Of a stretch of 64,000 bases of DNA, positions 4,575-54,306 are shown piece after piece (positions within the stretch are counted from its first letter, which is position 1; the number at the start of each line of letters is the position of its first letter). This DNA comes from a virus (taxonomy: Duplodnaviria; Caudoviricetes). Position numbers and translations under genes: made by a program. The notes beneath the pieces were generated by a model that was given only the letters and a program-made list of their open reading frames with translations, was not told where the DNA came from and made no database searches. Where the stretch lies: the IMG/VR virus record IMGVR_UViG_3300020727_000019, positions 761-64,760 of that record; one strand, 5' to 3'.

Positions 4575-5429
4575 ATGGCAGATGGCGGCATAGCAGAAAG
4601 CGCATTGTTAAGTTCGGTAATGACTGGTGCAGCAGTTGGCGGCGGCAGTGCTTTGCTTACAGGCGGTGATCCCCTTAAAGGTGCTTTAATGGGTGGCGTA
4701 ACTGGTGGGGCTATGAGTGGCATTATGCCAGGGGCTTCCGCCGTAACTGGAGATACTGCTGGTGTTGGGATGCCAGAAGCACCACCTAATCCTGATGTTA
4801 ATGTTCCTGCAACCACGCCACAAGGCGGAAATGCCGTATCCGCTGCTTTGCACAGTGATATGGGTTATGGCGCTGCCGCAAGCCCAGCCGAATTAAATGC
4901 TGCTGGGAGCGGTGCTGGCACGGGTATTGGTTCAGGTATTAGTGATATGTGGAACAGTTTATCCACACCTCAAAAAATGTTAGCAGGTGCTGGTGCAGGC
5001 ATTGGGGCAACCATGTATGCGGATCGCAAAAAATACGGCATTCCCACGCAGAAAAAATATACTGGTGCATTAAGCAAATTTTCTTATGACCCATCTACGT
5101 ATGTACCTTACACAATGGCAGAGGGTGGTATCGCTGCACTTGCTGGTGGTGGACATTTAGGTAGTTATTCAGATGGTGGGCATTTGCTTAAAGGCCCGGG
5201 AGATGGCATGTCTGATAATATTCCTGCGTCTATTGGTGAAAAACAACCTGCACGTTTGGCAGATGGAGAATTTGTTATACCTGCTGATGTTGTATCTCAC
5301 CTAGGTAATGGGTCTACAGATGCTGGTGCAAAACAGTTGTACCATATGATGAACAAGGTGCGTAAAGCCCGTACTGGTAATCCAAAGCAAGGCACACAGA
5401 TTAACCCACGCAAATACATGCCAGCATAA
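4575..5429 (+). CDS. Internal virion/ejection protein with conserved GPGDGMSDNIPA...LADGEFV domain
   Basis: Gly/Ala-rich helices typical of ejection proteins; MADGG/MAEGG/YSDGG motifs. Confidence 0.65.
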   Translation: MADGGIAESALLSSVMTGAAVGGGSALLTGGDPLKGALMGGVTGGAMSGIMPGASAVTGDTAGVGMPEAPPNPDVNVPATTPQGGNAVSAALHSDMGYGAAASPAELNAAGSGAGTGIGSGISDMWNSLSTPQKMLAGAGAGIGATMYADRKKYGIPTQKKYTGALSKFSYDPSTYVPYTMAEGGIAALAGGGHLGSYSDGGHLLKGPGDGMSDNIPASIGEKQPARLADGEFVIPADVVSHLGNGSTDAGAKQLYHMMNKVRKARTGNPKQGTQINPRKYMPA

Positions 5430-6644: not shown

Positions 6645-7075
6645 TGAATTTAACTGTGCAATATGCGGATACCAACTACGTTCAGCAGCTTTGGCCTAAA
6701 GTAGAACCTTTTATTAGGGAAGCTTTGGACAAGGGTGGGGACTTCCCAGATTGGGCTGCATCGTATACAGTAGAACATGTCCAGTCATATTTAACTGCGG
6801 GTCAGTGGCTTTTGTTGGTTGCCGTAGATGATGCAGGTGAGATTCATGGTGCGGCAACCGTGTCGTTTATTAATTACCCATTGCACAGAGTTGCGTTTGT
6901 AACTTCTATTGGGGGCAAATTAATATCAAATGACAATACATTTGAGCAGTTAAAGCAAATCCTAAAACAACGTGGCGCAACAAAGATACAAGGATACGGC
7001 AGACCAGCTATCGTACGTCTTTGGAAGCGATACAATTTCGAACCTAGAAACACTTTAGTTGAGGTGCTATTATGA
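6644..7075 (+). CDS. GNAT-fold protein (P22 gp14-like position)
   Basis: 143 aa; WLLLVAVD...IHGAATV...GYGRPAIVRLWKRYNF resembles an acetyltransferase fold; lies immediately before the pilot protein. Confidence 0.6.
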   Translation: MNLTVQYADTNYVQQLWPKVEPFIREALDKGGDFPDWAASYTVEHVQSYLTAGQWLLLVAVDDAGEIHGAATVSFINYPLHRVAFVTSIGGKLISNDNTFEQLKQILKQRGATKIQGYGRPAIVRLWKRYNFEPRNTLVEVLL

Positions 7076-8150: not shown

Positions 8151-10082
8151 ATGTCTATAGTACAAAAATTACTTTATAAACCTGAAGCTTTTTCAATCCA
8201 AGAATTGCAAAAAGGTGTGCAAGATGGGTCTGTACCTGCGTATATTGGCATACCGCTAATTAAAGATAAATTGCAGCAGCAGAAACAAATGCAGGCAACG
8301 CAGACTGCTGGCGCTAATCCTAACCCTCCTACAGTTGCGCAAGGCATTTTGGCTGAAGCGGCTCAACCTGCGGGCATACCTGCACTACCAAGTAACTTAC
8401 CTGTTGCGACTGGCGCAGGTGGTGGCATTATTGCGTTTGCTGATGGTGGTGAGGCTGATGACGATGAAGAAGACGATGATAGTTCTGATTCTGGAATGAA
8501 CAAGGAAGAGCGTATGCTTTTCCAAAAACTTAGCGCACCCGCTCAAGAACAAGAAGCTCCTCAAATGGAAGCTGAAGAAGAACCCGAAGCTGAAGACGAA
8601 GAAGGTATAGAAAGTCTAGCGGGTATGGCAGGTGTTGCTGCAAAAAATGCACACCATGCGCTTAAAGAAGATATTAACAAGACACCTCCAGAGCAGCATG
8701 ATGCTTTGTTGCACCATGTGCTTTATAAAGAGAGTCGCGGGCAGCGTTACGACAAGAACGGCAATCTATTGACTTCAGAAAAAGGAGCAATGGGGGAAAT
8801 GCAAGTCATGCCAGGTACAGTAAAAAGTCCTGGGTTTGGCATAGAACCCGCACGCAGTAATTCTCCCGAAGAGTTTGCACGTGTTGGGCGTGAGTATTTG
8901 GGTGCATTGCATAACCGTTATGGTAACAATGAGTTGGCAGCAATTGCTTACAACTGGGGGCCTGGCAACACAGATAAGTGGTTAGCCTCTGGCGCAGACA
9001 TGTCCAAGCTACCCAAAGAAACCAAAGACTATATTAAAGGCATACCCGCAGGTAAAGCTGGTGGTGAAGTGCATTTTGATAAAGGCGGATTCCTTGACCG
9101 ACTAAGTAACTTTTTTATTCCTCCTTATCCTGCACCCCCCGCAGATAATGGTGGCTACCCAGCTAACGTAGACATATCTAAACCCTATATTGGCAATCCA
9201 CATATTGCGGCTCAAGGAGCAAAAGCTGGAGCAGTTCCCGCTAAACCAGTTGCACCTGTAATATCGCCAGCACAAACTAATAGAAATGCAGTATTTGCAC
9301 AAACACAAGATACTGAGGATCAAGAAGCTGGAATGCCACAGCAACAAAATACTCCAAATTATGATGCAACAACTGAAGCAGAAGATCAAGGGTTTGGGCC
9401 AATTCAAAATAACCCACCTGGCGCTAACATGGAAGTTAGTCCTGATGATGACTACGTTAAACAGTATGCAGACTATCTAAAGCAGCGCCAAGAAGGTGTT
9501 GAGAAAAACTACCAAAACGACAAGTACATGGCACTTCTACAAGCAGGTCTTGGTATGATGGGTGGCACATCTCCATATGCTGCGGCTAATATTGGTCAAG
9601 GTGCAAGCCAAGGCGTGTCCTATATGGCTAATGCTAATAGACAACGTAGTGCTGAAGAGAATGCTATATTGTCTGGTAAGCTTGGTCTTACCCGTGCAGA
9701 CTTGTATAAGAAAATGCATGAATCGCAATTAAAGCAACATGAGCAAGCTTTTAATGCGCAACAACAATACCGATATGATAATTTACGTGCTTTAGTTGGT
9801 GATAAAGAAGCTAGACGTATAATAGATCAACAAAAAGTTCAACAACAAAGTAGAGCCAATGATATAAAAGAAGCGCAAGCTAGGGCTAAAGCAGATGCGG
9901 CATTTGAAGGTTCACCTCAAGATATTGCGTTAAAGAAAGACTTAGAACGCCAAGGTGGAAAAAATTGGATGAACAATTTTGAGCTAAATGCAAGGTATCA
10001 ACAAGAAAGAAGAACACATGCAATTAACAATTCTTATTTGCATTACGATGACCCATCAATAAAGTCTTCTAGCGAGTATTAA
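8151..10082 (+). CDS. Ejection protein with lytic transglycosylase (SLT) domain
   Basis: SLT motifs YKESRG, SEKGAMGEMQVMPGT, AAIAYNWGPG; C-terminal ALLQAGLGMMGG ejection-type segment. Confidence 0.85.
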   Translation: MSIVQKLLYKPEAFSIQELQKGVQDGSVPAYIGIPLIKDKLQQQKQMQATQTAGANPNPPTVAQGILAEAAQPAGIPALPSNLPVATGAGGGIIAFADGGEADDDEEDDDSSDSGMNKEERMLFQKLSAPAQEQEAPQMEAEEEPEAEDEEGIESLAGMAGVAAKNAHHALKEDINKTPPEQHDALLHHVLYKESRGQRYDKNGNLLTSEKGAMGEMQVMPGTVKSPGFGIEPARSNSPEEFARVGREYLGALHNRYGNNELAAIAYNWGPGNTDKWLASGADMSKLPKETKDYIKGIPAGKAGGEVHFDKGGFLDRLSNFFIPPYPAPPADNGGYPANVDISKPYIGNPHIAAQGAKAGAVPAKPVAPVISPAQTNRNAVFAQTQDTEDQEAGMPQQQNTPNYDATTEAEDQGFGPIQNNPPGANMEVSPDDDYVKQYADYLKQRQEGVEKNYQNDKYMALLQAGLGMMGGTSPYAAANIGQGASQGVSYMANANRQRSAEENAILSGKLGLTRADLYKKMHESQLKQHEQAFNAQQQYRYDNLRALVGDKEARRIIDQQKVQQQSRANDIKEAQARAKADAAFEGSPQDIALKKDLERQGGKNWMNNFELNARYQQERRTHAINNSYLHYDDPSIKSSSEY

Positions 10083-16000: not shown

Positions 16001-16209
16001 CAAGAACGGCTGGTGATACAGATTTGATGAGTAGTACCCAAGACAAGATCACTTCATTCAATGAAGCACATCCGGGTGAGCGTATTACATCAGCTACTTT
16101 GCAGAAATCTGAGACTGCACGCAAAGCCAATGAGAAAAACATGATTGACGGAATTGTTTACAACAAGAAGTTGTTGCCCGAAATCAGAGAGAAGTTTTCT
16201 GAAGATTGA
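10084..16209 (+). CDS. Giant internal virion / polyvalent protein (2041 aa) with zincin-like HExxH and LPD38-like C-terminus
   Basis: HEITH motif (HTAIHEITHAA...QDLQEFASE); C-terminal LGRVAFTFKSF...GLPFYG...FAPADL region resembles large polyvalent protein domains. Confidence 0.75.
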   Translation: MILDLPKLGQVRFDDNLTSDQLSSELNRLAKKYDFELPKQEFTTGEVLKRGVMRGAKQLGSTLTDVIPAMGASALGFNDYAKQQMQEAQDTQNEINKYYSPQYGSLKDVKGISDIPKFVLENVAEQVPNIATSLIPGGIGAAVGRRLGVAAAGRAAMPLIESGATASELAHVAATKGAEYAARGQNAGIFLGSYAQNAPEVFQNIYDKTGELAPGAAALFGAGAAALDSVLPAHLMKNLTGPMKMGIVEKVLEKSGMDKGLLRSVASNMLAAAGEEGITEGMQEAISIAAENFVGKNPQIFGSPEWNRIMESSVRGAVGGGAFGATTGAIERGRAGRERAQQYEQALQKRAGRQLTAEANRQSANIDQFNNEQQQMQLPGMEMGPYTTLLPEGQFAKPPKVVEPKEPKGVQGSLFDEQGAPTKQAEMTVAKADKAAANRERLEQQRQAAATKEAAAKLKAAIAEIAPTKIDLLSLARQPSPLAQTIAQQKAENENLAAKRGPKPVLPTQQQVAPAAPTVAPQQAAPTAPVQEQPAPPQAAPVEQQAAAPVDQTTAVAPEPTVVQKPTQLTPQQLPTTIDDNTFKGLGIGRTATFIRNKLIHGKDISNPADAAEVKRVLEAYAEKTTSTKARENVEAFLGRPEFQGVEDATRPDTTTTGTSNEVVSEPAGGAAGTVEPTERDGNVPAEQNAPSVNAGEVRKPAPIEKPLSKKAQNDKAKAEKGAEKAKQEHAEFIEENDKRVDNLLTSKIHEAAANQNIEAKYVKIKSHRGTDVHKTLRLSALINEYFTIKDITQKAQEPLQKTKNEQTLKSLQEEIAKNSPDGAALLANLEQLPNNKRAEFMNNLNKLGIQESEQLVKQKVEEARKRKEDAEAAMPKKEKPVARKGRGVSAKDRQKEAIQYIYDNWLPDPKNKKTFKDLLNKGQILGAMDMAIDSLPNKMTKLQLKEELKQILGKDIFYGPAYKGKNLDATGIDLVKKGNVNNILDHLIKTIDNNEIKQVLRRFKALGLNPKIVIGEVGFGKAGSYDPATNTITLDPEHGLNEHTAIHEITHAAISHVLNNRNHPLTKQFLKFFDQIQNQLGAAYGAQDLQEFASELVGNPNFQAVLKTIKAPKSGNLFERIMQSIAEFFGFRKGQSAYNAGLKFINDAIDVSRDVEATPSEKMFMSTGQAVNDAFRTVGEIGKNMPNLTREAVDKARNTFSNIADKNSPMYAGPSTTKLAFGLLRLDHLNTIYKKQLPSIQRLIDALEKRNGTQERRIKEINKNYKHFTDVFKKHKAAMERMNDMAYDARLAEVDILNPKFPTTKENLSEFARLRTIYHALPTEVQDVYKTIRKSYEDSINEYEKILLANATPSLAARIKAEFQTKRRVPGYIPFLRRGDFWVEYADPATGERAASAFESIRERDKFIKDVLKGAQHKSYQNLQNAQYQQGLVPPTSFLGQIMHGLQQNGASQEQLNNVYQSYLALFPAQSLVKQFMKSENVRGMERDIVRGYGDTMIKWARKLSDSAYSPEIDKAIDAIGAEASNTNTPDVYAAAQNVYDQRGFMHNPTYSDLVSGATTLSYMEYIAGNASSALVNVTSLPMMVWPILSGKYGFAGATSAMMNASKIAINGLDKNARYKNLYEALMDHGQLEHTMAREVLEGRRQSTSEFTGLKAKMLGALSIPFAASEKYNRAVTAVAAYDLAKQKGKSEAQAIREAIDTVKDAHTSGMSVTAPKWMQHPLGRVAFTFKSFAWNSAFVIGRAFHQAFKGETPVVRKAAMRQLIGTYGMGMAFAGAKGLPFYGAASTLASIINALFGDDDEPFDFNEEMRDFFGEFAYKGPVNYLTNLEISNRVGLATDLIYRDDPRSVADHGLTLTIIQQALGPAASYAVNAENAAKMMAEGHTKRAFEALAPSFVRNGMKGFRYMTEGAQTLKGDPIESDINTYNGLMQIAGFAPADLSNMYEMSSARTQFQKEVLARKTKLLNLYDLARTAGDTDLMSSTQDKITSFNEAHPGERITSATLQKSETARKANEKNMIDGIVYNKKLLPEIREKFSED

Positions 16210-31692: not shown

Positions 31693-31891
31693 CTGTTAAT
31701 AATTTGGCAATTGCGGGTTCTACTTTGGTTAACGAATTGGTTTTGTAACTACGGCAATGAAACTCATCACCCCAAAAATACAAATACACATGAGGGTTGT
31801 CCTTCTTAAACGCAAGGTCTTCAAACGCTACATACCCAATTCGATTACTCTTTGTAAGTACCCAATCGCCTTCCTCGATACTACTCATCAA
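31640..31891 (-). CDS. Hypothetical protein (SH3-like beta pattern)
   Basis: IEEGDWVLTKSNRIGYV... Confidence 0.6.
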   Translation of the reverse strand: MMSSIEEGDWVLTKSNRIGYVAFEDLAFKKDNPHVYLYFWGDEFHCRSYKTNSLTKVEPAIAKLLTDVHKEQVNGLKGDSAND

Positions 31892-32721
31892 AACATACCT
31901 AAGATCTCATCGACCTTGGCTTTCACGTCAAGACGCAGATCATCGTCCTTGCGTAACTCGCTGGCCGTGACACCTACAAGCGCACTCTCCAACTTCTTTC
32001 TAGCAAACTCTAATTTAGAGTCACCAGTCACGTTCAACTTAGTAAGCAACTCGCATAGGTCTGATGCATTATTCACCAATGAGTCTCTGAATATCTGCTT
32101 ATCCTCGCCCGCCAACTTTGTGCTCATGCGTGTCAGGCAATCGTGCAATCTATCCCATGCATCTTTCATAGCATCTGCCAACTTGTTGTTGTAGAACTCT
32201 TCATACTGGGCCTTCAGCTCTTCCTTGTGGGCATCATTTACCTCAATCCTAAAGTCACCTACATCAGGCACTGGCAAGAACACATACTTAAACTTAAACT
32301 TGCTTTTCAAACTCTCAGCAGTAGGATACTCTTCCGAGTCAAACAAATCACCCAACTGGAAAGCCGCCGCCGTTACTAGCGTGTCGTACTCTTGCAAGAA
32401 CATCTGTACCTCACCTTCCAACTGACGCTCAAAGTCTCCAAGCGTAGCCTTGTAGTCAAAGAAGTTTTTCATTGGTAGTAAGCGAGACCCGCCATCCGAC
32501 CAAGGCAAGGTCTGCTCGTAGTGCCACGTACGAATCTTAGTAACAAGTTTCTGCAACTCATCCAACCGATCTGTACCTGCCAACAACTTTTTGTGATAGT
32601 TGCCAGCCCGAGACTTTGTACCCTTGCTCGCATCAATCTCCTCGGATACTTTCTTATCCATCTTGCGACCTGTCCATACACTGATGTTCAAGTCAACTAG
32701 CATTGCACTGTTCTGAATCAT
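31888..32721 (-). CDS. DUF3150-like helical protein associated with the AAA/vWA module
   Basis: AMLVDLNISVWTGRKMDK...TLPWSDGGSRLLP...FKFKYVFLPVP; start at MIQN with AGGAG. Confidence 0.65.
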   Translation of the reverse strand: MIQNSAMLVDLNISVWTGRKMDKKVSEEIDASKGTKSRAGNYHKKLLAGTDRLDELQKLVTKIRTWHYEQTLPWSDGGSRLLPMKNFFDYKATLGDFERQLEGEVQMFLQEYDTLVTAAAFQLGDLFDSEEYPTAESLKSKFKFKYVFLPVPDVGDFRIEVNDAHKEELKAQYEEFYNNKLADAMKDAWDRLHDCLTRMSTKLAGEDKQIFRDSLVNNASDLCELLTKLNVTGDSKLEFARKKLESALVGVTASELRKDDDLRLDVKAKVDEILGMF

Positions 32722-32756
32722 TTGCACTCTCCTTTTTGTTAACACCTGTTAATAAA

Positions 32757-33962
32757 TTACGCTTCGATGTGAATAGTCTTACCAACATCTGAAGTAACCT
32801 CACTTGTGATACCCCATAGTGTTGGACAATCCCACACACCCCAGTCCCCACCTAAATAACCATCGGTTAAGATAACCGAACACTCAGCCTTGATCCTATG
32901 CTCTCGCATATAGATAGGCACGCACGCTACATCAGTACCGCCCCCACCCTTGGGCTTAGTACTGGACAACAAGTTGTCAAGTTGATCTTGCTCGTACTTC
33001 TCATGCGAGCACACCTCGGTATCCCAATAGATCAAGTCGATACCTTCGGGTCTAACAGTCTCGCATATCTTGCGCACCTCACCAAGGAACTGCCCGATCT
33101 CCTCGCTACCAATCGACCCTGACATATCAATAGCTACCACGATACGCCCGACCGACTCACCGATCAATGATGGCATGTAAACATCTTGGTCTATCCACCT
33201 ACGATTTGGTCTACGCCATGTGCTCTCATCCTTATCCATACAGAACGATGTGACAAACTCACGCATAGCCTCACGCCAATCGACCTTGGCTTTTAGTTCA
33301 TCGGTCACTTCCCTAGGTACGTTGGCACTCATCTTGCCCGCAAGGATCGCACCCTGACGCAACGCTTGGTCAATGTCTCGTGCTAGTTTATTCTGCTCTT
33401 CCTTGGTCATATCCTTCGCACCATCCCAGTCATGCTCATCAAAGCCACCATACCCCGACTCGTTGTCAACTGGTATATCCTTGCCTTGTGGATTGCCGAC
33501 TGTCTTCACATGCACCGACCCACCCTGTGCTTGTTGCATCAAGTCCTTGTACACCGACCCAGCATCCCATCCCCGATACTTCGGATCAAGCAACGCCATA
33601 TCAGGCAACCTAACGAACGACCCATTCATATCAGAATCTTCGATCATTATGTTGATAACAAAGTCACACGCCATGTTAGCCAACTGTGCATGTTCGTCAT
33701 AGAGATGTCTCCATGTAGTAGTGTGTCGGAAAGCCTTGTGTAGATTCTCATGCAAGATAACTGCACGCAGTCCCTTGTCATCCATCTTCTCAACGAACGC
33801 TCTACCATACATAGTGTTGCGACCATCGGTACAAGCAGTTGGGACATCATCCTTCACGCTTGTTTCACCGACCATAAAGATACCCGAATACCAACAGTAC
33901 TTGGGGTCTTTCATCAAGGCAACGTGTGCCTTCTGTACTCTTTGTTCTGCACTTAATGTCAT
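32757..33962 (-). CDS. vWA domain + DUF2201-like metallopeptidase
   Basis: PTACTDG, HENLH (HExxH), MIDAS DMSGS, GGGTD, ILTDG. Confidence 0.88.
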   Translation of the reverse strand: MTLSAEQRVQKAHVALMKDPKYCWYSGIFMVGETSVKDDVPTACTDGRNTMYGRAFVEKMDDKGLRAVILHENLHKAFRHTTTWRHLYDEHAQLANMACDFVINIMIEDSDMNGSFVRLPDMALLDPKYRGWDAGSVYKDLMQQAQGGSVHVKTVGNPQGKDIPVDNESGYGGFDEHDWDGAKDMTKEEQNKLARDIDQALRQGAILAGKMSANVPREVTDELKAKVDWREAMREFVTSFCMDKDESTWRRPNRRWIDQDVYMPSLIGESVGRIVVAIDMSGSIGSEEIGQFLGEVRKICETVRPEGIDLIYWDTEVCSHEKYEQDQLDNLLSSTKPKGGGGTDVACVPIYMREHRIKAECSVILTDGYLGGDWGVWDCPTLWGITSEVTSDVGKTIHIEA

Positions 33963-33984
33963 TTTATGAACTCCTGTTAATAAA

Positions 33985-35067
33985 TTAGAACAACCATTGA
34001 TTGTTCAACGCCCAGTCCTTGAAGTCTTTCTGCAACACGCAGAACGCTTGCTTGCTTGGAGACTTCATCACACTCGTAGCAAACAACGCTTGCCACTCCT
34101 TGTCCATACGTTGTACGTAGGACATCCACTTGCTTAGAGTATCTTTCTCTACTCTACTGATTGCACTAAACACTAGTATGCATTTAGCTACTGCATCTGT
34201 CGGTAGCTTTGCAGTCAACGGACTAGCCATGATCGCATCCCATGTAGGTAACTTGTCCACCACAGTAAAGAACGATTGCATATCCCTCGATGCACTCTCA
34301 CCGATAGTGCCTGTCAGCATACTAATTGTCAGCGCATCACCCAACTGGTCACGTTGCTTTGCAATGTAACTAGCCTTCTCCAAACTTCTTGGTGTAACCA
34401 CCGCACCCATACCAGCACGCTGTGGATTGAAGATATAGGGATTATCTTTCTGCCCACCATCGGTGTAACTTGCCAACGCATGTGGGAACTGCTTAACCCA
34501 TGCGATCACCTCGGGTGCAATGTTATTACCCAATGCCCACTCAATCCACTCATCTGCATCGGGCTTGCGCACAGTTACAAAACACACACGATTCCTTGCA
34601 TGTGCTTCGAGCATGTCACCGACACCATCTGTCAACAGATTAGTTGTACCGAACACAATCGAACCTTCAGGCAAGTAGTTGTCACCGATCCTATGCTCTA
34701 GCATAAGAGTCAATAGCACATTCTTAACCGCCTTCATTGCCTTGCCGATCTCGTCAAGCATAACAATAACGGGCTTGTTCATATGCATCTTGAACCTAGC
34801 ATTGGGCGCAAACTTAGTTACACGCATACCAAACTCACTGTCCACCACCTCGGTGTAGGGCAAAGCAAAGTCGCCGAGGTCAAGCAAGGTGCAGTCGATG
34901 TACGCCAACTCATAATTGGGATACTGCGCACCAAGAACTTTTAGCATGGCGCTCTTGCCAATCCCAGGTTCACCCTGTCCGATCACAGTTACCTTCTCGC
35001 CCACAATGCCGATGCTTTGAGCAAACTCTTTCAATGATACAGAACTACCAAAATTAATTGCACTCAT
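33985..35067 (-). CDS. MoxR-like AAA+ ATPase
   Basis: Walker A GEPGIGKS, Walker B VMLDEIGK, sensor GTTN, arginine finger ARNRV, TPRSLE. Confidence 0.9.
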   Translation of the reverse strand: MSAINFGSSVSLKEFAQSIGIVGEKVTVIGQGEPGIGKSAMLKVLGAQYPNYELAYIDCTLLDLGDFALPYTEVVDSEFGMRVTKFAPNARFKMHMNKPVIVMLDEIGKAMKAVKNVLLTLMLEHRIGDNYLPEGSIVFGTTNLLTDGVGDMLEAHARNRVCFVTVRKPDADEWIEWALGNNIAPEVIAWVKQFPHALASYTDGGQKDNPYIFNPQRAGMGAVVTPRSLEKASYIAKQRDQLGDALTISMLTGTIGESASRDMQSFFTVVDKLPTWDAIMASPLTAKLPTDAVAKCILVFSAISRVEKDTLSKWMSYVQRMDKEWQALFATSVMKSPSKQAFCVLQKDFKDWALNNQWLF

Positions 35068-43284: not shown

Positions 43285-43472
43285 TGGATGTCTTCAGTAC
43301 TTTAATTAAAGAATTTGACGAAAGAGTTTCTCAGATTAAAGACTACATGGCCGAAGGGCGTGTGGAGAATTTTGAGGACTATAAAAAACTTTGTGGGGAG
43401 ATCAAGGGTCTGCTCTTTGCAAGGGGATACACATTAGACCTGCAACGAAATTTAGAGGAATCAGATGAATAA
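43284..43472 (+). CDS. Small conserved protein between portal and GroES
   Basis: G...FEDYKKLCGEIKGL motif. Confidence 0.7.
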   Translation: MDVFSTLIKEFDERVSQIKDYMAEGRVENFEDYKKLCGEIKGLLFARGYTLDLQRNLEESDE

Positions 43473-43881
43473 AATTCTATTGGGTACAAACCCCGATAAT
43501 CCGGTAGTAGTTGGCGCATACAACTATGAGGCGACAGAAGCCGAAAAAGCAAAGCAACTCCCAAGGCCATCAGGCTACAAGATTCTTTGTGCGATTCCCG
43601 AAGTAGAAAAGGAATTTGAAAACGGTATAGCTAAATCTGACGAGACAATTAGAAACGAAGAAGTCTTAACGACTATTTTGTTTGTGGTTGCGATGGGGCC
43701 AGATTGTTATAGCGATAAAAACAAATTTCCCACAGGCCCGTGGTGCAAAGAAGGTGACTTTATTTTGGTTCGGCCAAATGCTGGAGCAAGATTAGTTATC
43801 CACGGCAGAGAATTTAGGATTATTTATGACGACACAGTAGATGCTGTTGTAGATGATCCACGTGGTATTAGACGTAAATAA
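43465..43881 (+). CDS. groES: Phage GroES-like co-chaperonin
   Basis: LPRPSGYKIL, mobile loop ENGIAK, VVAMGPD, KEGDFIL, GREFRIIYDDTVDAVV. Confidence 0.85.
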   Translation: MNKILLGTNPDNPVVVGAYNYEATEAEKAKQLPRPSGYKILCAIPEVEKEFENGIAKSDETIRNEEVLTTILFVVAMGPDCYSDKNKFPTGPWCKEGDFILVRPNAGARLVIHGREFRIIYDDTVDAVVDDPRGIRRK

Positions 43882-43892
43882 AGGAGTACAAA

Positions 43893-44819
43893 ATGCCTGA
43901 ATTTGAAAAACAAGAATTTAAATTTCCCGATGAAGTTGAAGATAGTCCTGAAAACGATATCAGTATTGAAATCGAAGACGATACCCCAACCGAAGATCGT
44001 GGAAAGACACCACTACCAAGACCTCTAGTTGAAGAGCTAGAGAAAGACGAACTTGATTCTTATGATGAGAATGTCAAGGTCAAACTCAAACAAATGCGTA
44101 AGGTTTGGCACGATGAGCGCCGTGAAAAAGAATCTGCATTACGTGAGCAACAAGAGGCTTTAACACTGGCTAGACGTTTGCTAGATGAAAATAAACGAAT
44201 GAAAGGTTTATTGTCGTCAGGCGAGAAAGAATACGTCTCAACTGTGCAAAATGCGGCAAATATGGAGCTGGAAATGGCGAAAAAGGCTTATAAAGAAGCC
44301 TATGACGCTGGTGATACAGATGCCATTATTGAAGCCCAACAAGCCATGCAAGTCGCTAATTTGCGCATAATGCAGGCAAAAAACTACAAACCTACTTTAC
44401 AAGAACCTGAAATTGAAGTACAACCTCAACAACAGCAGGTTCAACAACCTCCTAAACCAGACCAAAGAGCGATGGCGTGGCAAGAACGCAATCAATGGTT
44501 TGGACAAGATGAGGAGATGACTGCCGCTGCTTTAGGCTTACACGAAAAGCTCAAACGCAATGGTGTGGTAGTTGGATCTGATGAATACTATGCGACATTA
44601 GACAAAACAATGCGCAAAAGGTTTGCGGAAAACTTCGAAGAAGAAAAACCCGAACCGACCCGTGCTAAACCTAGCACTGTAGTTGCTCCTGCGGTTAGAA
44701 GCACATCTTCAAACAAGATAAAGCTTAGAACTAGTCAAGTAAGCATTGCTAAAAAACTAGGCTTAACCCCCGAACAATATGCTAGAGAAGCACTAAAACT
44801 GGAGTCCCAAAATGGCTGA
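43893..44819 (+). CDS. Capsid scaffolding protein
   Basis: Acidic coiled coil; C-terminal QVSIAKKLGLTPEQYA; lies before the capsid genes. Confidence 0.75.
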   Translation: MPEFEKQEFKFPDEVEDSPENDISIEIEDDTPTEDRGKTPLPRPLVEELEKDELDSYDENVKVKLKQMRKVWHDERREKESALREQQEALTLARRLLDENKRMKGLLSSGEKEYVSTVQNAANMELEMAKKAYKEAYDAGDTDAIIEAQQAMQVANLRIMQAKNYKPTLQEPEIEVQPQQQQVQQPPKPDQRAMAWQERNQWFGQDEEMTAAALGLHEKLKRNGVVVGSDEYYATLDKTMRKRFAENFEEEKPEPTRAKPSTVVAPAVRSTSSNKIKLRTSQVSIAKKLGLTPEQYAREALKLESQNG

Positions 44820-46162: not shown

Positions 46163-47065
46163 ATGGCTATTTCACGCGCACAACTATTGAAAGAGTTGCT
46201 CCCAGGTTTGAACGCTTTGTTCGGTCTAGAGTACGCTCGCTACGGCGAAGAACACAAAGAAATCTATGAGACAGAGACTTCTGAGCGTTCTTTTGAAGAA
46301 GAAACCAAATTGTCTGGCTTCTCAGCAGCACCAGTTAAGGGTGAGGGCACTGCCATCTCCTACGACAATGCGCAGGAAGCATGGACAGCTCGCTATAACC
46401 ACGAGACTATCGCTCTTGGCTTTAGCTTGACAGAAGAGGCTATTGAGGACAACCTCTATGACTCTCTATCTGCTCGCTATACCAAAGGCTTGGCCCGTGC
46501 TATGGCTTACACCAAGCAAGTTAAAGCAGCGGCTGTTTTAAATAACGGCTTTAATGCTACTATTGTTGGTGGTGACGGCGTGTCTTTGTTCTCTACGGCT
46601 CACCCCCTAGTGAACGGCGGTACAAATGCTAATACTCCTTCTACCCCTGCTGATTTGAATGAAACTGCGTTGGAAAATGCTGTTATTCAGATCGCTGCTT
46701 GGACAGACGAGCGTGGCCTTTTGATCGCTGCTAGACCCAAGAAGTTGATTGTTCCTCCAGCATTGATGTTCGTTGCAACCCGTTTGCTCGATACAGAATT
46801 GCGTGTTGGTACAAACAACAATGACATTAACGCTCTAAAGAACAATGGTTCAGTGCCTGAAGGCTATACTGTCAACCACTTCTTGACAGCACCTAATGCA
46901 TGGTTCTTGACTACTGACGTACCAAATGGTATGAAACACTTCGAGCGTACACCATTGCAAAACTCAATGGATGGAGATTTTGATACAGGTAACGTACGTT
47001 ATAAAGCTCGTGAGCGTTACAGCTTTGGCTATTCCGATCCTCTCGGAATCTACGGTTCTTACTAA
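46163..47065 (+). CDS. Major capsid protein (Mu gpT-like, HK97 fold)
   Basis: MAISRAQLLKELLPGLNALFG, ETSERSFEEE, KKLIVPPAL, GDFDTGNVRYKARERYSFG. Confidence 0.92.
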   Translation: MAISRAQLLKELLPGLNALFGLEYARYGEEHKEIYETETSERSFEEETKLSGFSAAPVKGEGTAISYDNAQEAWTARYNHETIALGFSLTEEAIEDNLYDSLSARYTKGLARAMAYTKQVKAAAVLNNGFNATIVGGDGVSLFSTAHPLVNGGTNANTPSTPADLNETALENAVIQIAAWTDERGLLIAARPKKLIVPPALMFVATRLLDTELRVGTNNNDINALKNNGSVPEGYTVNHFLTAPNAWFLTTDVPNGMKHFERTPLQNSMDGDFDTGNVRYKARERYSFGYSDPLGIYGSY

Positions 47066-47245: not shown

Positions 47246-47986
47246 ATGTTTTATGTTTATGTTTATCGTGATCCCCGCCCTCTTAAACTAGGCCAGCCTG
47301 TATACGTAGGTAAAGGTACAGGAGATCGTGACTTATCGCATTGGTCTAGGGGGTCTCATAACAAACCATTTCAAGACTTTATTTCACATTTAAAGCAACG
47401 CAACTTTGTCGCTGTTTGTGAGCGCGTATTTGAAACTGAAAACGAAGAAGAAGCTTTTGCCAAAGAAATGGAGCTTATCAAACTGTACGGGCGGCGAGAT
47501 TTAAAAACAGGAACACTATTTAATTTAACTGATGGTGGCGAAGGCCCAAGCGGGTATATTAAAAGTGATGCAGAAAAAGAAGTTGATAGGCATGGAACAC
47601 TTATAAATTGGCAAAACCCAGAATATCGTGCCAAAGTAATTGCGGCACAAACTAAAGCGCAAAATACCCCAAAAGCGCTTGAATCCAAGTCAATCAACTC
47701 TAAAAAGATGTGGGAAACACAAGGGGACACATTGGCTAAAAATATCAAGGAAGCCCGCAATACAGAAGAGTCCAAAGCTAAAACCAGTGCGCAAGCTAAA
47801 GCTCAGTGGGCTGACCCTGATTATGCTGCTAAACAAACTGCGAACAACAAAGAAATTGCTAACCGTGAAGAGGTTAAAGCCGCTAAGAAAGCCGCAGCTA
47901 AAGCACTATGGGCTAACCCAGTTTGGAAGGCAAAAATGATGGCCGCAAGAAATAACAAAAAACTTCTTGACACGCCCAAGGAATAG
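47246..47986 (+). mobile_element. Free-standing GIY-YIG (Seg-like) homing endonuclease
   Basis: FYVYVY...PVYVGKG..R...H GIY-YIG variant; LFNLTDGGEG; W-x-[DN]-P-x-Y helical repeats; has its own promoter. Confidence 0.8.
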
Positions 47987-49629: not shown

Positions 49630-49917
49630 ATGAGTACTCCAGCATGGCAACGCAAAGAAGGGAAGAATCCGAAAGGCGGCTTAAACGCCAAGGGTCGGGC
49701 ATCCGCAAAGAAGGAGGGGATGAATTTAAAGCCTCCACAACCCGAGGGAGGCTCACGCAGAAATTCTTTTTGCGCACGAATGTCGGGGATGAAGAAAAAG
49801 TTGACCTCATCAAAGACAGCAAACGATCCAAACAGTCGGATTAACAAAAGCCTACGGGCTTGGAATTGTGCTGATGGATGCGCAATTCGTGGACTGACTA
49901 AGGGAAAGATGGTTTAA
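49630..49917 (+). CDS. Small basic protein (DUF6321-like)
   Basis: TPAWQRKEGKNPKGGLNAKGRAS...RRNSFCARM...DPNSRINKSLRAWNC. Confidence 0.75.
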   Translation: MSTPAWQRKEGKNPKGGLNAKGRASAKKEGMNLKPPQPEGGSRRNSFCARMSGMKKKLTSSKTANDPNSRINKSLRAWNCADGCAIRGLTKGKMV

Positions 49918-49918
49918 T

Positions 49919-50467
49919 ATGCCAAGTACTAGCAAGAAACAGCACAACTTTATGGAAGCAATTGCCCATAACAAGGCGTTTGCAAAGAAGGTAGGGGTTC
50001 CACAAAAAGTGGGACAAGATTTTAGCAACGCCGATAAAGGCAAACATTTTTCAAGAGGTGGAGATATGGCACACGATAAACACGCACATCATATGAAGAT
50101 GGCTCATCATCATTTAAAAATGGCGATGGGTGGTATGGCCGAGAATTTGATTCCTGTGCCAAAAGAACCAAAAACAGGTAAGCCAACAGGAGGCGGTATT
50201 AAGCATGGCGGCCATATTAAAAAGATGGCTTCTGGCGGTCTTACTGGCAAACATGGCGTTGAAGAAAAACGTGGCATGACCACAGCTAAGATGGGTTCTG
50301 TCAAAGAAGGCGGAATTAAAAAGCATGGCGAACATAGTGTTCAAGAGCGTGGTCATACCAAAGCCATGATGCCCAAAATGAAGGGTAACGACATTGGTAA
50401 TGGCGGTTTATATAACGTCAAAGGCCCAGCCATGAAACGTGGTGGTATGGCTCGTCATAAGAAATAA
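49919..50467 (+). CDS. Basic Lys/His/Met-rich protein with repeated xxxGG motifs
   Basis: MPSTSKKQHNFM start; six GG-motif copies. Confidence 0.75.
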   Translation: MPSTSKKQHNFMEAIAHNKAFAKKVGVPQKVGQDFSNADKGKHFSRGGDMAHDKHAHHMKMAHHHLKMAMGGMAENLIPVPKEPKTGKPTGGGIKHGGHIKKMASGGLTGKHGVEEKRGMTTAKMGSVKEGGIKKHGEHSVQERGHTKAMMPKMKGNDIGNGGLYNVKGPAMKRGGMARHKK

Positions 50468-50477
50468 GGAGTTAGTC

Positions 50478-50681
50478 ATGAAACACCCAGAGCACGAAAA
50501 GCATATTCATCCCGCTGGACATGAGCATCCCCATGAGCATAAACATCACGTTCACCACATGAAAGAACATCATGCAGGCGGACATGTTCATCACCACCAT
50601 CACTATGGTAAACATGCTGCTGGACACCACAAGCACCATGAAATCGTAGAACATTTGCACAAGCATCAAGAATCCAAATAA
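50478..50681 (+). CDS. Histidine-rich small protein (28 His of 67 aa)
   Basis: AAGGAG RBS before the ATG at 50478; in the operon frame with tight spacing. Confidence 0.7.
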   Translation: MKHPEHEKHIHPAGHEHPHEHKHHVHHMKEHHAGGHVHHHHHYGKHAAGHHKHHEIVEHLHKHQESK

Positions 50682-50691
50682 GGAAACTATC

Positions 50692-51084
50692 ATGGCAAAG
50701 CATAAAAAAGCCAAACGATACGAGGAAGGCGGTGACGTTGACAACGAATCGTATATGCACGATACGGAACAACGCAATGTAACAGATGAAGCTCCACAAA
50801 AAATGGAAGCCGCTCCTGTTAAAAAGAAAGCCCCGATTGTTACCAAAGAACAATTAGCTAAATCTGGTTTAAGCTTGCGTGATTACATGAACAAGCAACA
50901 AGGCTTGGATCGTAAACAACCCGCTAACTGGAAGAAAAATGGATTCTATGGTTCCGAAACTGGCGGTGATGCTGCCGTTATGTACCGTAAATCTATGGCT
51001 AAAGGTGGCGTGGCTAAGAGTTCTGCCTCTTCAAGAGCAGATGGTTGCTGCGAGCGTGGTCACACTAAAGGACATATGAGATGA
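50692..51084 (+). CDS. Small basic protein with YEEGG/MAKGG and RADGxxxRGxTKG motifs
   Basis: AAGGAA RBS; shared motifs with neighbours. Confidence 0.75.
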   Translation: MAKHKKAKRYEEGGDVDNESYMHDTEQRNVTDEAPQKMEAAPVKKKAPIVTKEQLAKSGLSLRDYMNKQQGLDRKQPANWKKNGFYGSETGGDAAVMYRKSMAKGGVAKSSASSRADGCCERGHTKGHMR

Positions 51085-51368
51085 TGTCCAGTCGTGGTAT
51101 GGGCGACATCAACCCGTCTAAGATGCCGGGTAAAAAGGTTATTAAACGAAAAGATAACCCTAATGATGTCGCCATGTACAAAAAAGGCGGCAAGGTCAAA
51201 TCAAAAGTAAATGAAGCAAATGCATATACCAAACCCGGTATGCGCAAGTCTTTGTTTGAGTCCATCAAGTCTAGAGCCGTGCAAGGCACAGGAGCTGGTC
51301 AATGGTCTGCTCGTAAAGCACAACTGCTGGCTAAATCTTATAAGGCTAAAGGTGGGGGCTATAAATGA
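51081..51368 (+). CDS. Small basic protein (DUF5872-like)
   Basis: YTKPGMRK...GQWSARKAQLLAKSYKAKGGGY. Confidence 0.75.
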   Translation: MMSSRGMGDINPSKMPGKKVIKRKDNPNDVAMYKKGGKVKSKVNEANAYTKPGMRKSLFESIKSRAVQGTGAGQWSARKAQLLAKSYKAKGGGYK

Positions 51369-51598
51369 AAAACCCGCAACAATCTTTAAAAGATTGGGGT
51401 GATCAAAAATGGCGCACCAAAAGTGGAAAACCATCGAGTAAGACTGGTGAGCGGTATCTTCCTGAGAAAGCAATCAAGTCGTTGACTCCAGCAGAATATG
51501 CTGCAACGACAAAAGCAAAGCGTAAAGGTAAAGCGGCTGGCAAACAGTTTGTTGCCCAGCCAAAAACAATTGCAAAGAAAACCGCAGGGTTTAGATAA
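51365..51598 (+). CDS. Small basic protein (DUF5872-like)
   Basis: QQSLKDWGDQKWRTKSGKPSSKTGERYLPEKAI. Confidence 0.75.
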   Translation: MKNPQQSLKDWGDQKWRTKSGKPSSKTGERYLPEKAIKSLTPAEYAATTKAKRKGKAAGKQFVAQPKTIAKKTAGFR

Positions 51599-52548
51599 TG
51601 GCACAGACATCTGGAGTTTCAGGGTTCAATCTAGACCTCACCGAAATAGTCGAGGAGGCGTATGAGCGCTGCGGTTCAGAATCTAGATCAGGATACAACA
51701 TAAAGACTGCTAGACGGTCTTTAAATTTGTTGTTTGCTGATTGGGCTAATCGTGGCATTAATATGTGGACATTTGAGCAAGACTATATTCCTCTTGTTCA
51801 AGGTCAGAATACCTATGCATTGCCAGACGATACGGTTGATTTGCTTGAGCATGTGGTTCGCACAAATGCTAACTCCGTAAGCAACCAATCCGATCTAACT
51901 ATTACTCGTATTAGTGTTTCTACCTATGCGACTATTCCAAACAAATTAGCCCAAGCAAGGCCAATTCAAGTTTGGGTTCAAAGATTAACAGCCCAAGATT
52001 CCTTAACAGGTAGTTATTTGTATGCAGCTATTGGCGCAACAGATACTACAATCCCAGTAACTTCACTTGTTGGTATACCAAATGCTGGGTTTATTACAAT
52101 TGATTCAGAGCTAATTGGGTTCAATGAAGTTCAAGTAGCTGCTAATGGTAACCCCGCTTATTTGCTAAATTGCAACCGTGGGCAACGGAATACCACTGCG
52201 GCATCCCATAACATAGCCTCCCCTATAACTCTTTCCCAAAAGCCTTGTATAACCGTTTGGCCAACACCTGACGGGTCTACTACCTATCAATTTGTTTACT
52301 GGCGTATGCGCCGTATGCAAGATGCTGGGGGCGGTGTAAATGTTATGGACATACCATTCAGATTTATTACTTGCATGGTAGCTGGATTAGCCTATTACAT
52401 GGCATTAAAACTACCAAATGCAATGGACAGATTACCTGTCCTAAAACAACAATATGATGAAGCTTGGACATTAGCCGCCCAAGAAGATCATGATAAATCC
52501 GCTATTCGATTTGTACCTAGACATATGTACATTGGGGGTGGGATTTAA
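51598..52548 (+). CDS. Head-to-tail adaptor (P22 gp4-like) with inserted beta domain
   Basis: EIVEEAYERCG...ARRSLNLLFADWANRGINMW...WPTPD...IPFRF. Confidence 0.7.
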   Translation: MAQTSGVSGFNLDLTEIVEEAYERCGSESRSGYNIKTARRSLNLLFADWANRGINMWTFEQDYIPLVQGQNTYALPDDTVDLLEHVVRTNANSVSNQSDLTITRISVSTYATIPNKLAQARPIQVWVQRLTAQDSLTGSYLYAAIGATDTTIPVTSLVGIPNAGFITIDSELIGFNEVQVAANGNPAYLLNCNRGQRNTTAASHNIASPITLSQKPCITVWPTPDGSTTYQFVYWRMRRMQDAGGGVNVMDIPFRFITCMVAGLAYYMALKLPNAMDRLPVLKQQYDEAWTLAAQEDHDKSAIRFVPRHMYIGGGI

Positions 52549-52937
52549 TGGCAAATAGGTTCGCATCGGGTAAAAACTCGATTGCCGAGTGTGATCGTTG
52601 TGGGCAAAGGTACATGCTCAAACAATTGAAGATGGAGATCATTAAGACCAAAATCTATCAATTAAAGGTATGTCCTGAATGTTGGGATCCAGATCAGCCC
52701 CAATTGCAATTGGGTATGTATCCAATTGATGATCCACAAGCGGTTATGCAACCTAGGCCAGATTTGAGCTATACCCAATCAGGAGTTACTGCAACAGGGT
52801 CAATTGGCGAAGGTAGCAGAGTATTTCAGTGGGGCTGGAATCCTGTCGGCGGGGCAAGATTATTTGATACGGCTTTAACTGAAAATGATTTGATTTTGCA
52901 AGTACAAGTTGGTACAGTTACAATAGTTACAACGTAG
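52548..52937 (+). CDS. Zinc-finger protein
   Basis: AECDRCG...VCPECWDPDQPQ. Confidence 0.7.
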   Translation: MANRFASGKNSIAECDRCGQRYMLKQLKMEIIKTKIYQLKVCPECWDPDQPQLQLGMYPIDDPQAVMQPRPDLSYTQSGVTATGSIGEGSRVFQWGWNPVGGARLFDTALTENDLILQVQVGTVTIVTT

Positions 52938-52946
52938 GAGTTTAGA

Positions 52947-53165
52947 ATGAAGCACGATGATATCAAAGAGGACAAAAAGCTGATTAAGAAGGCTTTTTCT
53001 ATGCACGATAAACAGGAACATCCCGGCAAGCACACCAACCTATCCAATCTTAAAAAGGGCGGCAAGGTTCACAAAATGAAACAGGGTGGCCCAACAGGTA
53101 AAGATATGCGTGCAGTAGGCCGCAATTTAGCCCGTGCCCATAATCAAAAACCTGGGAGCAAATAA
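52947..53165 (+). CDS. Small basic protein with LKKGG/MKQGG motifs
   Basis: GGAG RBS; HDKQEHPGK. Confidence 0.7.
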   Translation: MKHDDIKEDKKLIKKAFSMHDKQEHPGKHTNLSNLKKGGKVHKMKQGGPTGKDMRAVGRNLARAHNQKPGSK

Positions 53166-53440
53166 TGAAACCAACTAAAAAAGATAGCCCTGCTATTCAA
53201 CGTGGCGCTAATCGAGATAATCGCCCTGCTGATGAATATGCAGCACCTCATGACATGAAAGGTAGATCTGTAAACATTGCAGATGCTGGTACAGCGCCTG
53301 AGTTCGAAAAGAAAAAGAACTGGGTTCCTTTGATGGGCGTGTCCATTACGATGGATGATCGTGTTGAGACAGATGGTATTAAGATTCGTGGTACAGGTGC
53401 AGCCACTAAAGGTGTGATGGCAAGAGGCCCAATGGCATGA
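53165..53440 (+). CDS. Small protein with GIKIRGTGAATKG motif
   Basis: Translationally coupled. Confidence 0.7.
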   Translation: MKPTKKDSPAIQRGANRDNRPADEYAAPHDMKGRSVNIADAGTAPEFEKKKNWVPLMGVSITMDDRVETDGIKIRGTGAATKGVMARGPMA

Positions 53441-54306
53441 ATTACACTCAGCTTAAACAACTGATACAGGATTACACACAGAATTACGAAACTACTTTCG
53501 TAAATGATATTCCTACGTTTGTTGAACAAGCTGAACAACGCATCTATAACACAGTTCAATTCCCATCATTACGCAAAAATGTAACGGGAACTATTACTCC
53601 TTACAACCAATATTTGTCTTCTCCTAACGATTTTTTGGCCTCATATTCATTGGCTGTATATACAACCGCTTCCACAACAGCCACAGGTTCTGCTGGTACG
53701 TTGCTTATTACGGTGGCCAGCAATTCAGGGATTGTTTTGGGTCAGTTGGCACAAGGCACAGGAATTGCCCCTAATTCCTATGTAATTAATATTTCTGGAA
53801 CAAGTATTACTTTATCAGTTCCAAATACTGGCACTGTGTCGGGAACTGTGACGTTCCAAGGGCAGTTTCAATATTTGCTGAATAAAGATGTTAACTACAT
53901 TCGTGAAGCATATGGATTTCCTAACTCCTACGGAACGCCAAAATACTATGCTTTGTTCGGGCCAACAGTAGCGAGCGGGGCAATCACCAATGAATTGTCT
54001 TTCATACTGGGCCCCACTCCTGACACTGCTTATACCGCTGAGTTGCATTATTACTATTACCCAGTTTCGATCTCTGATACCGTTAACAACCCAAGTGGTA
54101 CTTCTTGGCTTGGGGACAACTTTGATACCGTGCTTTTGTATGGCTCTCTTGTTGAGGCTTATACCTTTATGAAAGGTGAAGCTGATATGGTAGCCTTATA
54201 TGAGAAAAGATATACAGAAGCATTAGCTCTAGCTAAACGTCTTGGCGATGGTATGGAGCGTCAAGATGCGTACCGTTCTGGTCAATTTAGACAGGCGGTC
54301 ACATGA
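53437..54306 (+). CDS. Tail tubular/adaptor protein (T7 gp11 / P22 gp4-like) with inserted beta domain
   Basis: MNYTQLKQLIQDY...FVEQAEQRIY...GPTPD..Y..ELHYYY...LLYGSLVEAY. Confidence 0.75.
   Translation: MNYTQLKQLIQDYTQNYETTFVNDIPTFVEQAEQRIYNTVQFPSLRKNVTGTITPYNQYLSSPNDFLASYSLAVYTTASTTATGSAGTLLITVASNSGIVLGQLAQGTGIAPNSYVINISGTSITLSVPNTGTVSGTVTFQGQFQYLLNKDVNYIREAYGFPNSYGTPKYYALFGPTVASGAITNELSFILGPTPDTAYTAELHYYYYPVSISDTVNNPSGTSWLGDNFDTVLLYGSLVEAYTFMKGEADMVALYEKRYTEALALAKRLGDGMERQDAYRSGQFRQAVT

Follow-up and report, generated by a model that had tools for sequence, protein, structure and literature searches.

Why should a set of dissimilar late proteins of one tailed phage carry the same five-residue peptide, in some of them over and over again? 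The question is raised by a window of 64,000 nucleotides, which makes up almost all of a 64,760-bp virus record of IMG/VR (IMGVR_UViG_3300020727_000019) rated complete by CheckV. Small proteins encoded around the gene of a head-to-tail adaptor, together with proteins of a distant ejection-type module, share a motif in which a hydrophobic residue is followed by two residues of any kind and by G-G. The recurrence of this hydrophobic-x-x-G-G motif is confirmed here as real and far above chance. Moreover, a second motif at the end of some of the small proteins turned out to belong, as its C-terminal half, to a larger fixed unit of ~30 residues that begins with the first motif. As for their role, the two linked peptide signals may dock disordered late proteins to a common partner in the assembling head, a reading that sequence comparison brings close to an even chance but not quite up to it.

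Recurrence of the motif in late proteins

The carriers and their close neighbours, sorted into lettered families of homologues, are encoded as follows:

49630..49917, + strand: family A, small basic DUF6321 protein whose last 15 residues are an appended half of the C-terminal tag (49873-49905)
49919..50467, + strand: family B, three-helix N-terminal domain (residues 1-42, matched by phrog_16759) followed by a tail predicted to be disordered
50478..50681, + strand: family C, His-rich protein of 67 residues with one near-match, which has H at the hydrophobic position (50568-50582)
50692..51084, + strand: family D, variable N-terminal part followed by the full bipartite C-terminal unit
51081..51368, + strand: family E, phrog_17747 domain (residues 34-95) after a linker that holds one motif (51177-51191)
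51365..51598, + strand: family F, small basic protein matched by phrog_14910, with neither motif nor tag, an internal control within the cluster
52947..53165, + strand: family G, basic protein of 72 residues with two motif copies (53049-53063 and 53076-53090)
53165..53440, + strand: family H, protein of 91 residues with a variant of the tag (53372-53413) and no hydrophobic-x-x-G-G motif
4575..5429, + strand: family J, Gly-rich internal or ejection-module protein, its ejection role being suggested by gene position
8151..10082, + strand: family K, internal virion protein with a lytic transglycosylase domain (Pfam SLT, E=4e-13)

All the open reading frames and motif instances listed in a preliminary description of this DNA were found where it had placed them. 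It had counted at least 15 instances of [MFYL]-x-x-G-G in seven late proteins; the strict pattern has indeed 16 matches, but they fall in six proteins, so that seven was generous by one. Four of the matches are in 49919, two in 50692, one in 51081, two in 52947, five in 4575 and two in 8151, and the listed instances with I, V or H at the first position, including the sole one in 50478, are near-matches outside this pattern. When each protein was shuffled separately with its Gly content kept (3000 shuffles), the eight small proteins were found to have 18 G-G runs against 9.5 expected, and 12 instances of [MFYLIV]-x-x-G-G against 2.1 expected, a number that none of the 3000 shuffles reached. The two ejection proteins alone gave a marginal result (7 observed, 3.5 expected, P=0.056), which turned into a strong signal once homologues were added. 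No significant excess was seen in the other 78 proteins (33 observed, 30 expected), and a hydrophobic residue occupied the motif position in 7 of the 26 G-G sites of early-strand genes, below background. Two trivial accounts fall with these numbers: Gly content does not explain the motif, whose excess survives shuffling within proteins, and it is not equally common in non-virion proteins, as neither the remaining proteome nor the early-strand genes show an excess. An artefact of composition is likewise discarded, since the shuffles fall short of the excess and most of the control families described below show none.

Around 200 related loci were gathered from IMG/VR in three sets (80 through an adaptor query, 38 through the protein encoded at 7072 and 79 new ones through a profile of family D). 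Seven families in these loci retain the motif, four of small proteins and three of the ejection module, and it is enriched 4-9.6 times in them: compared with shuffled sequences, the factor is 7.6-9.6 for B, D, E and G and 4-4.8 for J and K. Among eight control families from the same operons, seven (A, F, H and those of genes 48851, 4216, 6644 and 53437) have the motif at or below expectation, and the eighth (52548) has a marginal excess (1.7 times, z=2.1). At median identities of 42-62%, families B, D, E and G retain the motif while flanks diverge and copy number and position turn over, and in alignments with a mean column identity of 14-32% no positions are invariant other than the tag core and the glycines of the motif.

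The tail of the family B protein has seven motif copies, starting at 50048, 50120, 50198, 50225, 50300, 50393 and 50432, and its invariant residues are G137, G145, T147, G175 and G176. Its 60 homologues keep the 42-residue N-terminal domain and hold 2-6 copies each at positions that cannot be aligned, which amounts to 9.6 times the shuffle expectation. Family E retains the G-G in ~99% of 70 homologues, with an [MFY] match in 94%, and the second copy of family G is kept across 74 homologues (~42% median identity; enrichment 7.6 times), the first copy being optional. Family C is a weak member, with a true [MFY] match in 39% of relatives, and family F has none in 15 homologues. Content of K plus R reaches 19-26% in families B, D, E and G.

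Two features of these small proteins stand apart from the motif. The first 16 residues of family E (M-M-x-S-R-G-M-G-x-I-x-P-S-K-M-P; 51081-51130), upstream of the motif, are more than 90% conserved in the 70 homologues, better than the rest of the protein, and may be another short signal. The family C protein (50478-50681) is ~40% His and is conserved in 18 of 80 related loci; its distant versions have lost most His residues, keeping the G-G and a central A-A-G-H.

A similar picture was obtained for the ejection module. In family J, motif copies start at 4575, 5115, 5139 and 5166, with an L-type match at 4653, and those at 5115, 5139 and 5166 stand in tandem directly before an invariant C-terminal domain. 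Its 28 distinct homologues, of 290-770 residues, each contain a hypervariable stretch of low complexity in which [YMF]-A-x-G-G-[IVL]-[AT] is found 1-10 times, at non-alignable positions and frequently as tandems spaced by 8 residues; the C-terminal domain of ~85 residues always has a copy immediately before it, and the residues G184, G185, Y198, G201 and G202 are invariant (enrichment 4.8 times). In family K the copies lie at 8436-8450 and 9075-9089, the 8151 protein having a long poly-acidic run after the motif, and a tandem pair at residues 85-120 is preserved in relatives that are only 30-44% identical (enrichment 4 times). Members of the 7072 family often end in a motif copy. All three ejection-module carriers bear the short motif only, without the tag. 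The logos of the small proteins and of family J agree beyond G-G, with Ala at +1 in 45% and 60% of copies, respectively, and a hydrophobic residue, Thr or Ala after G-G, so that it is one motif in basic and non-basic carriers.

Selection acts on the peptide itself. The first Gly of the motif is encoded by GGC or GGT in 97% of copies, compared to ~80% for other glycines, so that GGA and GGG are avoided while GGC and GGT alternate freely. Such freedom of synonymous codons, together with the avoidance of GGA and GGG, argues for selection on the peptide and not on a Shine-Dalgarno-like RNA; an RNA-level signal, in the form of internal Shine-Dalgarno sequences from K-G-G codons, was rejected on this basis. 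AlphaFold models of 49919 and 4575, made with family alignments, predict that motif and tag lie in intrinsically disordered sequence, the motif-bearing regions of both having a predicted local distance difference test score (pLDDT) of ~50 or lower. In 49919, residues 1-40 are above 82 and the rest is at ~50; the 4575 model has a mean of 45, with most residues below 50 and every motif region under that value. Any folding of these peptides would therefore be on a partner. Altogether, the motif behaves as a short linear motif: it occurs above composition in unrelated proteins, lies in predicted disorder and is kept present while its number and position turn over.

A bipartite unit at the C-terminus

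The preliminary description had reported a second motif, and this was borne out: it closes both 49630 and 50692, is degenerate in 49919 and takes a variant form in 53165. The unit to which it belongs reads [MFY]-[AK]-K-G-G, a 9-residue gap and R-A-D-G-[CI]-A-x-[RK]-G-[KH]-T-[KR]-G, and it is usually followed by just three residues and the stop. Variants of the tag comprise a C-C/H/H type and an I-A/K type. In the family D protein, which has another motif copy at 50719-50733, the unit is made up of a motif at 50995-51009, the tag at 51040-51072, three residues and the stop. The alignment of this family leaves only M1, G105, G106, R115, D117, G118, G123 and T125 invariant, the N-terminal parts being non-alignable. 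Searched against the phage's own genome, the tag profile finds 50692 first (E=4.9e-16) and also the family A protein 49630 (E=1.4e-5). The latter is a DUF6321 protein (E=2.4e-19, residues 11-78) without any hydrophobic-x-x-G-G motif, and its tag extension exists only in some relatives and is absent from many. The tail of family B has a degenerate tag core at 50345-50362. The carriers had been taken as otherwise unrelated, but not all of them are: 49919 and 50692 share a homologous module of ~30 residues, and the end of 49630 is the same module. The last 24 residues of family H (53372-53440), where the tag variant lies, are at least 90% conserved in 76 homologues, and its N-terminal two thirds vary freely; its gene, a single-copy one situated between the two adaptor paralogues, was found in 78 of 80 loci.

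A profile search with family D revealed more than 6,526 protein clusters with the tag among 8,000 candidates scored, all of them small and metagenomic, none with a Pfam domain and almost all without name or hypothetical. Among the 120 best matches, the distance from G-G to D-G is 9 residues in 93 of the 118 that have the upstream motif, and exactly 3 residues follow the tag in 54; the others have, for the most part, a short extension with one more motif-like copy. Tandem duplications of the whole unit also exist. In the loci themselves, 359 distinct open reading frames bear the tag, 74 of them on the N-terminal domain of family B, 25 on DUF6321 and 260 on other sequences, whose N-terminal parts fall into 106 unlinked clusters (79 singletons) and whose tag ends three residues from the stop in 174 cases. 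A locus has between one and six tagged genes, which nearly always stand directly upstream of the adaptor gene and, where the contig reaches that far, downstream of the capsid gene; an adaptor homologue adjoins them in 75 of the 79 loci found with the tag profile. Tagged proteins of more than 400 residues were found 12 times, with up to ~12 motif copies. No fusion of the tag to an enzyme or known domain was found, and these 12 long proteins have no Pfam domain either.

The unit is covered by no Pfam or PHROG model and has no sequence relative in the PDB, where the tag profile gave a sole match, at chance level (E=0.4), to a loop of 3,4-dihydroxy-2-butanone-4-phosphate (DHBP) synthase, to be taken as a lead only. 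A tblastn search of a 40-residue tag against cultured phages returned no match, probably because the query is short and of low complexity. The ESM Atlas gave only nameless viral clusters and a match to a crassvirus cargo-protein domain (0.85) that is below threshold.

Cultured relatives were reached by another way. The C-terminal domain of family J led to the freshwater cyanophages MinM2, Pag-Yong1 and Pra-JY27 (each 65,014 bp) and to Caulobacter phages of ~62 kb. The genome plan of MinM2 is alike, with a Mu-gpT-like capsid protein, an early module of MoxR, VWA and DUF3150 proteins, and a giant internal protein of 2803 residues, the counterpart of a protein of 2041 residues in the window. Directly upstream of its adaptor gene, MinM2 (OQ594354) encodes a Pro/Ala/Arg-rich protein of 308 residues (2274-3200), with two motif copies and the tag at its end, and then a Gly-rich protein of 83 residues (3211-3462) with the motif; the J homologue of MinM2 (12429-13313) and the protein next to it both have the motif. 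The J homologue of Caulobacter phage RW carries the motif twice, ahead of the conserved domain and at the very C-terminus. Family E homologues of phages HMO-2011 and CRP-603 have the motif in the linker.

Such a distribution could also arise with no dedicated signal at all, by duplication and shuffling of one low-complexity module among neighbouring genes, where it would be kept for flexibility or for turns. Families B and D do share a homologous module, of which family A acquired half, whole units are duplicated in tandem, and repeat expansion is how disordered proteins rich in Gly evolve. Relics under no selection, however, would be expected to decay, and what has stayed invariant here is the tag core and the glycines of the motif; moreover, the motif is kept in seven families that are otherwise non-alignable and is missing from seven of the eight control families of the same operons, and synonymous codons vary around a fixed peptide. 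We regard this origin as very improbable.

Possible docking, condensation or cleavage

The readings that give the signals a function involve the head genes and their surroundings. Late genes are on the + strand and early genes on the − strand, and the features outside the lettered families are:

39176, + strand: large terminase
40696, + strand: portal
43465-43881: protein of 138 residues between portal and scaffold candidate, GroES-like by eye, with no Pfam or PHROG match
43893-44819, + strand: scaffold candidate, acidic, helical and conventional-looking, without the tag, upstream of the capsid gene
46163..47065, + strand: major capsid protein of 300 residues, HK97-like and Mu gpT-like (Phage_capsid_4, phrog_371)
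47246-47986, + strand: free-standing homing-endonuclease-like gene, directly 3' of the intact capsid gene
between the latter gene and the small-protein block, + strand: two unknown beta-rich proteins
49630-51598, + strand: small-protein block
51598..52548, + strand: head-to-tail adaptor of the SU10 adaptor family (Pfam SU10_adaptor, E=5e-11)
52548, + strand: zinc-ribbon-like protein with four Cys, between the adaptor paralogues
53437..54306, + strand: second SU10-adaptor-like protein (Pfam SU10_adaptor, E=6.1e-18)
after the second adaptor paralogue (53437), + strand: tail and fibre genes
10084-16209: protein of 2041 residues after the SLT protein, with an LPD39 domain (E=6.6e-12)
31888-35067, − strand: early module with a MoxR-type AAA+ ATPase, a DUF2201_N putative metallopeptidase fused to a VWA-like domain, and DUF3150

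In the docking reading, the common partner would be sought in the scaffold, the portal or the inside of the capsid shell. The first signal would be the short linear motif, with the consensus [MFY]-[A/K]-x-G-G-x-[T/V/A/I], of which a protein has 1 to ~12 copies, and with several copies binding would be multivalent. The second would be the tag, usually at the extreme C-terminus, composed of the first signal, a 9-residue spacer, the R-A-D-G core and three residues. Carried by many unrelated N-terminal sequences, it would serve as a constant address for a variable payload, while the first signal alone would recruit the ejection proteins of families J, K and 7072 to the same place. We infer in this way that the carriers are components of the virion or procapsid, that the motif binds and which partners come into question. 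The capsid protein matches Phage_capsid_4 at residues 30-297 of 300 (E=4.5e-15), and its very acidic N-arm would be compatible with an electrostatic contact, as between coat and scaffold in P22. The preliminary description had proposed either sorting and loading or cleavage: loading fits the evidence best, because of the fixed C-terminal tag on hypervariable N-termini, the motif shared with ejection proteins, the synteny and the restriction to one lineage, whereas cleavage is disfavoured.

Known systems offer partial parallels. In phage T4, a shared N-terminal peptide of ~10 residues, the capsid-targeting sequence (CTS), sends unrelated internal proteins into the prohead and is removed by the gp21 prohead protease at L/I-x-E, the proteins being co-packaged with DNA and ejected (PMC7697877, PMC8954989). 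As with the CTS of IPI-III and Alt, a short peptide is found here on unrelated, fast-diverging small proteins encoded by several genes in tandem. Unlike the CTS, the tag is C-terminal, has ~30 residues and no sequence similarity to it, and comes with no detectable protease; neither an N-terminal leader nor removal by a phage prohead protease was found, and T4 has no counterpart to the multicopy internal motif. In P22, the scaffolding protein docks to coat through a basic C-terminal helix-turn-helix, and the incorporation of gp7, gp16 and gp20 is scaffold-dependent (PMC7697877, PMC8954989). The tag is basic and C-terminal too, and in a like way it would dock a disordered protein to the inside of the coat lattice, with ejection proteins depending on the assembly core for their entry. 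It is Gly-rich, and the one tag-like stretch modelled (residues 128-150 of 49919) came out with low confidence and no helices, as expected of a disordered peptide; the phage also has a separate, tag-free scaffold candidate (43893-44819).

A third parallel comes from encapsulins, whose C-terminal cargo-loading peptides are on folded enzymes, bind the interior of an HK97-fold shell and are encoded beside the shell gene. C-terminal peptides on diverse proteins (106 clusters) whose genes lie by an HK97-like capsid gene were found here as well. However, the peptides of encapsulins (G-S-L-x-I-G-S-L-K type) are non-basic sequences with much Gly, Ser, Leu and Ile, and the shell here is a tailed-phage capsid protein, with N-terminal parts that are small, predicted to be disordered and domainless instead of folded enzymes. 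The unit may thus work like the T4, encapsulin or P22 elements by analogy, but as it lacks their tested defining features (position, consensus, protease dependence) it is no member of these families.

The basic and repetitive nature of the carriers allows another interpretation, in which the peptides are elements of self-association or nucleic-acid binding and not an address. Stickers made of an aromatic residue or Met plus G-G would act in a multivalent manner and the tag would bind DNA phosphates, so that proteins or genome would be condensed within the head or inside the infected cell. High basicity, predicted disorder and multivalency (up to ~12 copies) characterise the small carriers, their His-rich and Lys-rich neighbours fit charge neutralisation, and the weak, non-significant match of the tag core to the DHBP synthase loop (E=0.4) goes in the same direction. 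The basic tag could indeed bind DNA. Nevertheless, this PDB match is at chance level. The motif also occurs in non-basic and even acidic contexts in ejection proteins, and the acidic run that follows it in 8151 makes DNA binding by the motif alone unlikely. Moreover, DNA binding in general would require neither a position exactly 3 residues from the C-terminus nor confinement to one lineage with fixed synteny, whereas the untagged basic proteins A, E and F are spread across unrelated marine phages. Such strict C-terminal placement, together with the single lineage of fixed synteny and the contrast with untagged A, E and F, fits a lineage-specific protein partner, and we consider condensation unlikely.

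Cleavage during maturation was the remaining candidate: a protease of phage or host would cut after G-G, freeing small basic peptides and domains. Adenain cuts core proteins at (M/I/L)-X-G-G-X, between the second Gly and the last X, and C39 peptidases cut double-glycine leaders with a hydrophobic residue at −4. A hydrophobic residue before G-G is generally known from Gly-Gly protease sites (adenovirus, African swine fever virus, double-glycine leaders), and as in adenain sites it is found here in small basic proteins that would be associated with DNA. In family J, the position of a copy always directly before the invariant C-terminal domain would be a natural release point. The genome also has one putative metallopeptidase gene (DUF2201_N with a VWA-like domain, beside the MoxR ATPase), which is kept in MinM2 as part of the same module; it is the only peptidase-like protein of the genome, but its gene is in an early operon on the opposite strand. 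The analogy with adenovirus drawn in the preliminary description does not hold in detail, since one residue separates the hydrophobic position from G-G in adenain or ubiquitin-type L-x-G-G sites and two do here; the register also differs from that of double-glycine sites. No match to Peptidase_S78, Mu-like_Pro, S49, ClpP, C5 (adenain), C39 or C48 was found in the complete genome in searches whose controls worked, with none at E<=1 for C5, C39 and C48, although distant or novel proteases may escape them. The capsid protein is full length, without a delta domain to remove. Copies occur at residues 1-5 of 4575, at 2-8 residues from the C-terminus in family B (within the last 6-9 residues in most of its proteins) and in 8-residue tandems, so that cutting would give useless fragments, and residues after G-G are conserved too, unlike in adenain or double-glycine substrates. 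We find cleavage quite improbable and favour docking over it because no recognisable prohead or Gly-Gly protease is present and many copies are at protein ends.

Several observations weigh against docking itself. AlphaFold gave no folded or high-confidence state for either motif or tag, and the payloads are small, of low complexity and without known domain even in the 12 longest forms; "cargo" might be too strong a word, and the tag itself might be the functional part. In HMO-2011-type phages, the genes of motif-bearing family E homologues have another place, close to those for lysis and terminase and outside the interval from capsid to adaptor. As homologous sequences depend on one another, the z-scores of family enrichment overstate significance, and weight was therefore put on fold enrichment and on the number of families.

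The lineage has a capsid protein like Mu gpT and an adaptor like that of SU10, with cyanophage MinM2 as a cultured member. A broader proposal, that these abundant freshwater and marine short-tailed phages use an undescribed two-part address code to load a disordered repertoire and the ejection machinery into the procapsid without proteolysis, is possible, but we would sooner doubt it than assert it. No paper describing motif or tag was found in the literature, and a review of ejection proteins has no mention of such a motif, so that the conserved peptide code apparently is undescribed. To our knowledge, how tailed phages other than T4 select their head proteins is largely unknown, especially for the disordered ejection proteins of short-tailed phages. 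A sequence signal common to ejection proteins and fast-evolving small proteins is now defined and directly testable, and as the cultured relative, Synechococcus phage MinM2, carries it, experiments are feasible. If loading were true, it would explain the recurrent blocks of tiny basic open reading frames in environmental phage genomes, the tag would be a portable signal by which foreign proteins, too, might be packaged into capsids with the HK97 fold, and diversifying selection would be acting on the hypervariable payloads as a pool of injected proteins. If it were wrong, the conservation would still call for another explanation.

Neighbouring genes

Beyond the record ends come an endolysin, a virion protein and then the ejection-type module (4575, 5439, 7072, 8151 and the 2041-residue protein). 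The latter protein has only three G-G sites and no motif excess. Pfam gave no match for the genes between portal and capsid, and a PDB sequence search none for 43893, 45281 or 4575.

Genes of families A, E and F (49636-49869 and 51207-51602) are 66-75% identical at the nucleotide level to genes from unrelated marine phages (Pelagibacter phages, Puniceispirillum phage HMO-2011, Roseobacter CRP phages and Synechococcus myoviruses), which suggests that these tiny genes spread horizontally.

The two SU10-adaptor-like paralogues are 900 bp apart, with the zinc-ribbon-like 52548 and families G and H in between. The C-terminus of the adaptor was considered as an extra motif copy and rejected: its consensus, V-P-R-x-x-[YF]-I-G-[GS]-x-x (52510-52548, 76 homologues), has a different register and mimics the motif only when Met stands before [YF]. 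Finally, the homing-endonuclease-like gene at 47246-47986 was found in 3 of 79 related loci and is therefore probably a recent insertion.

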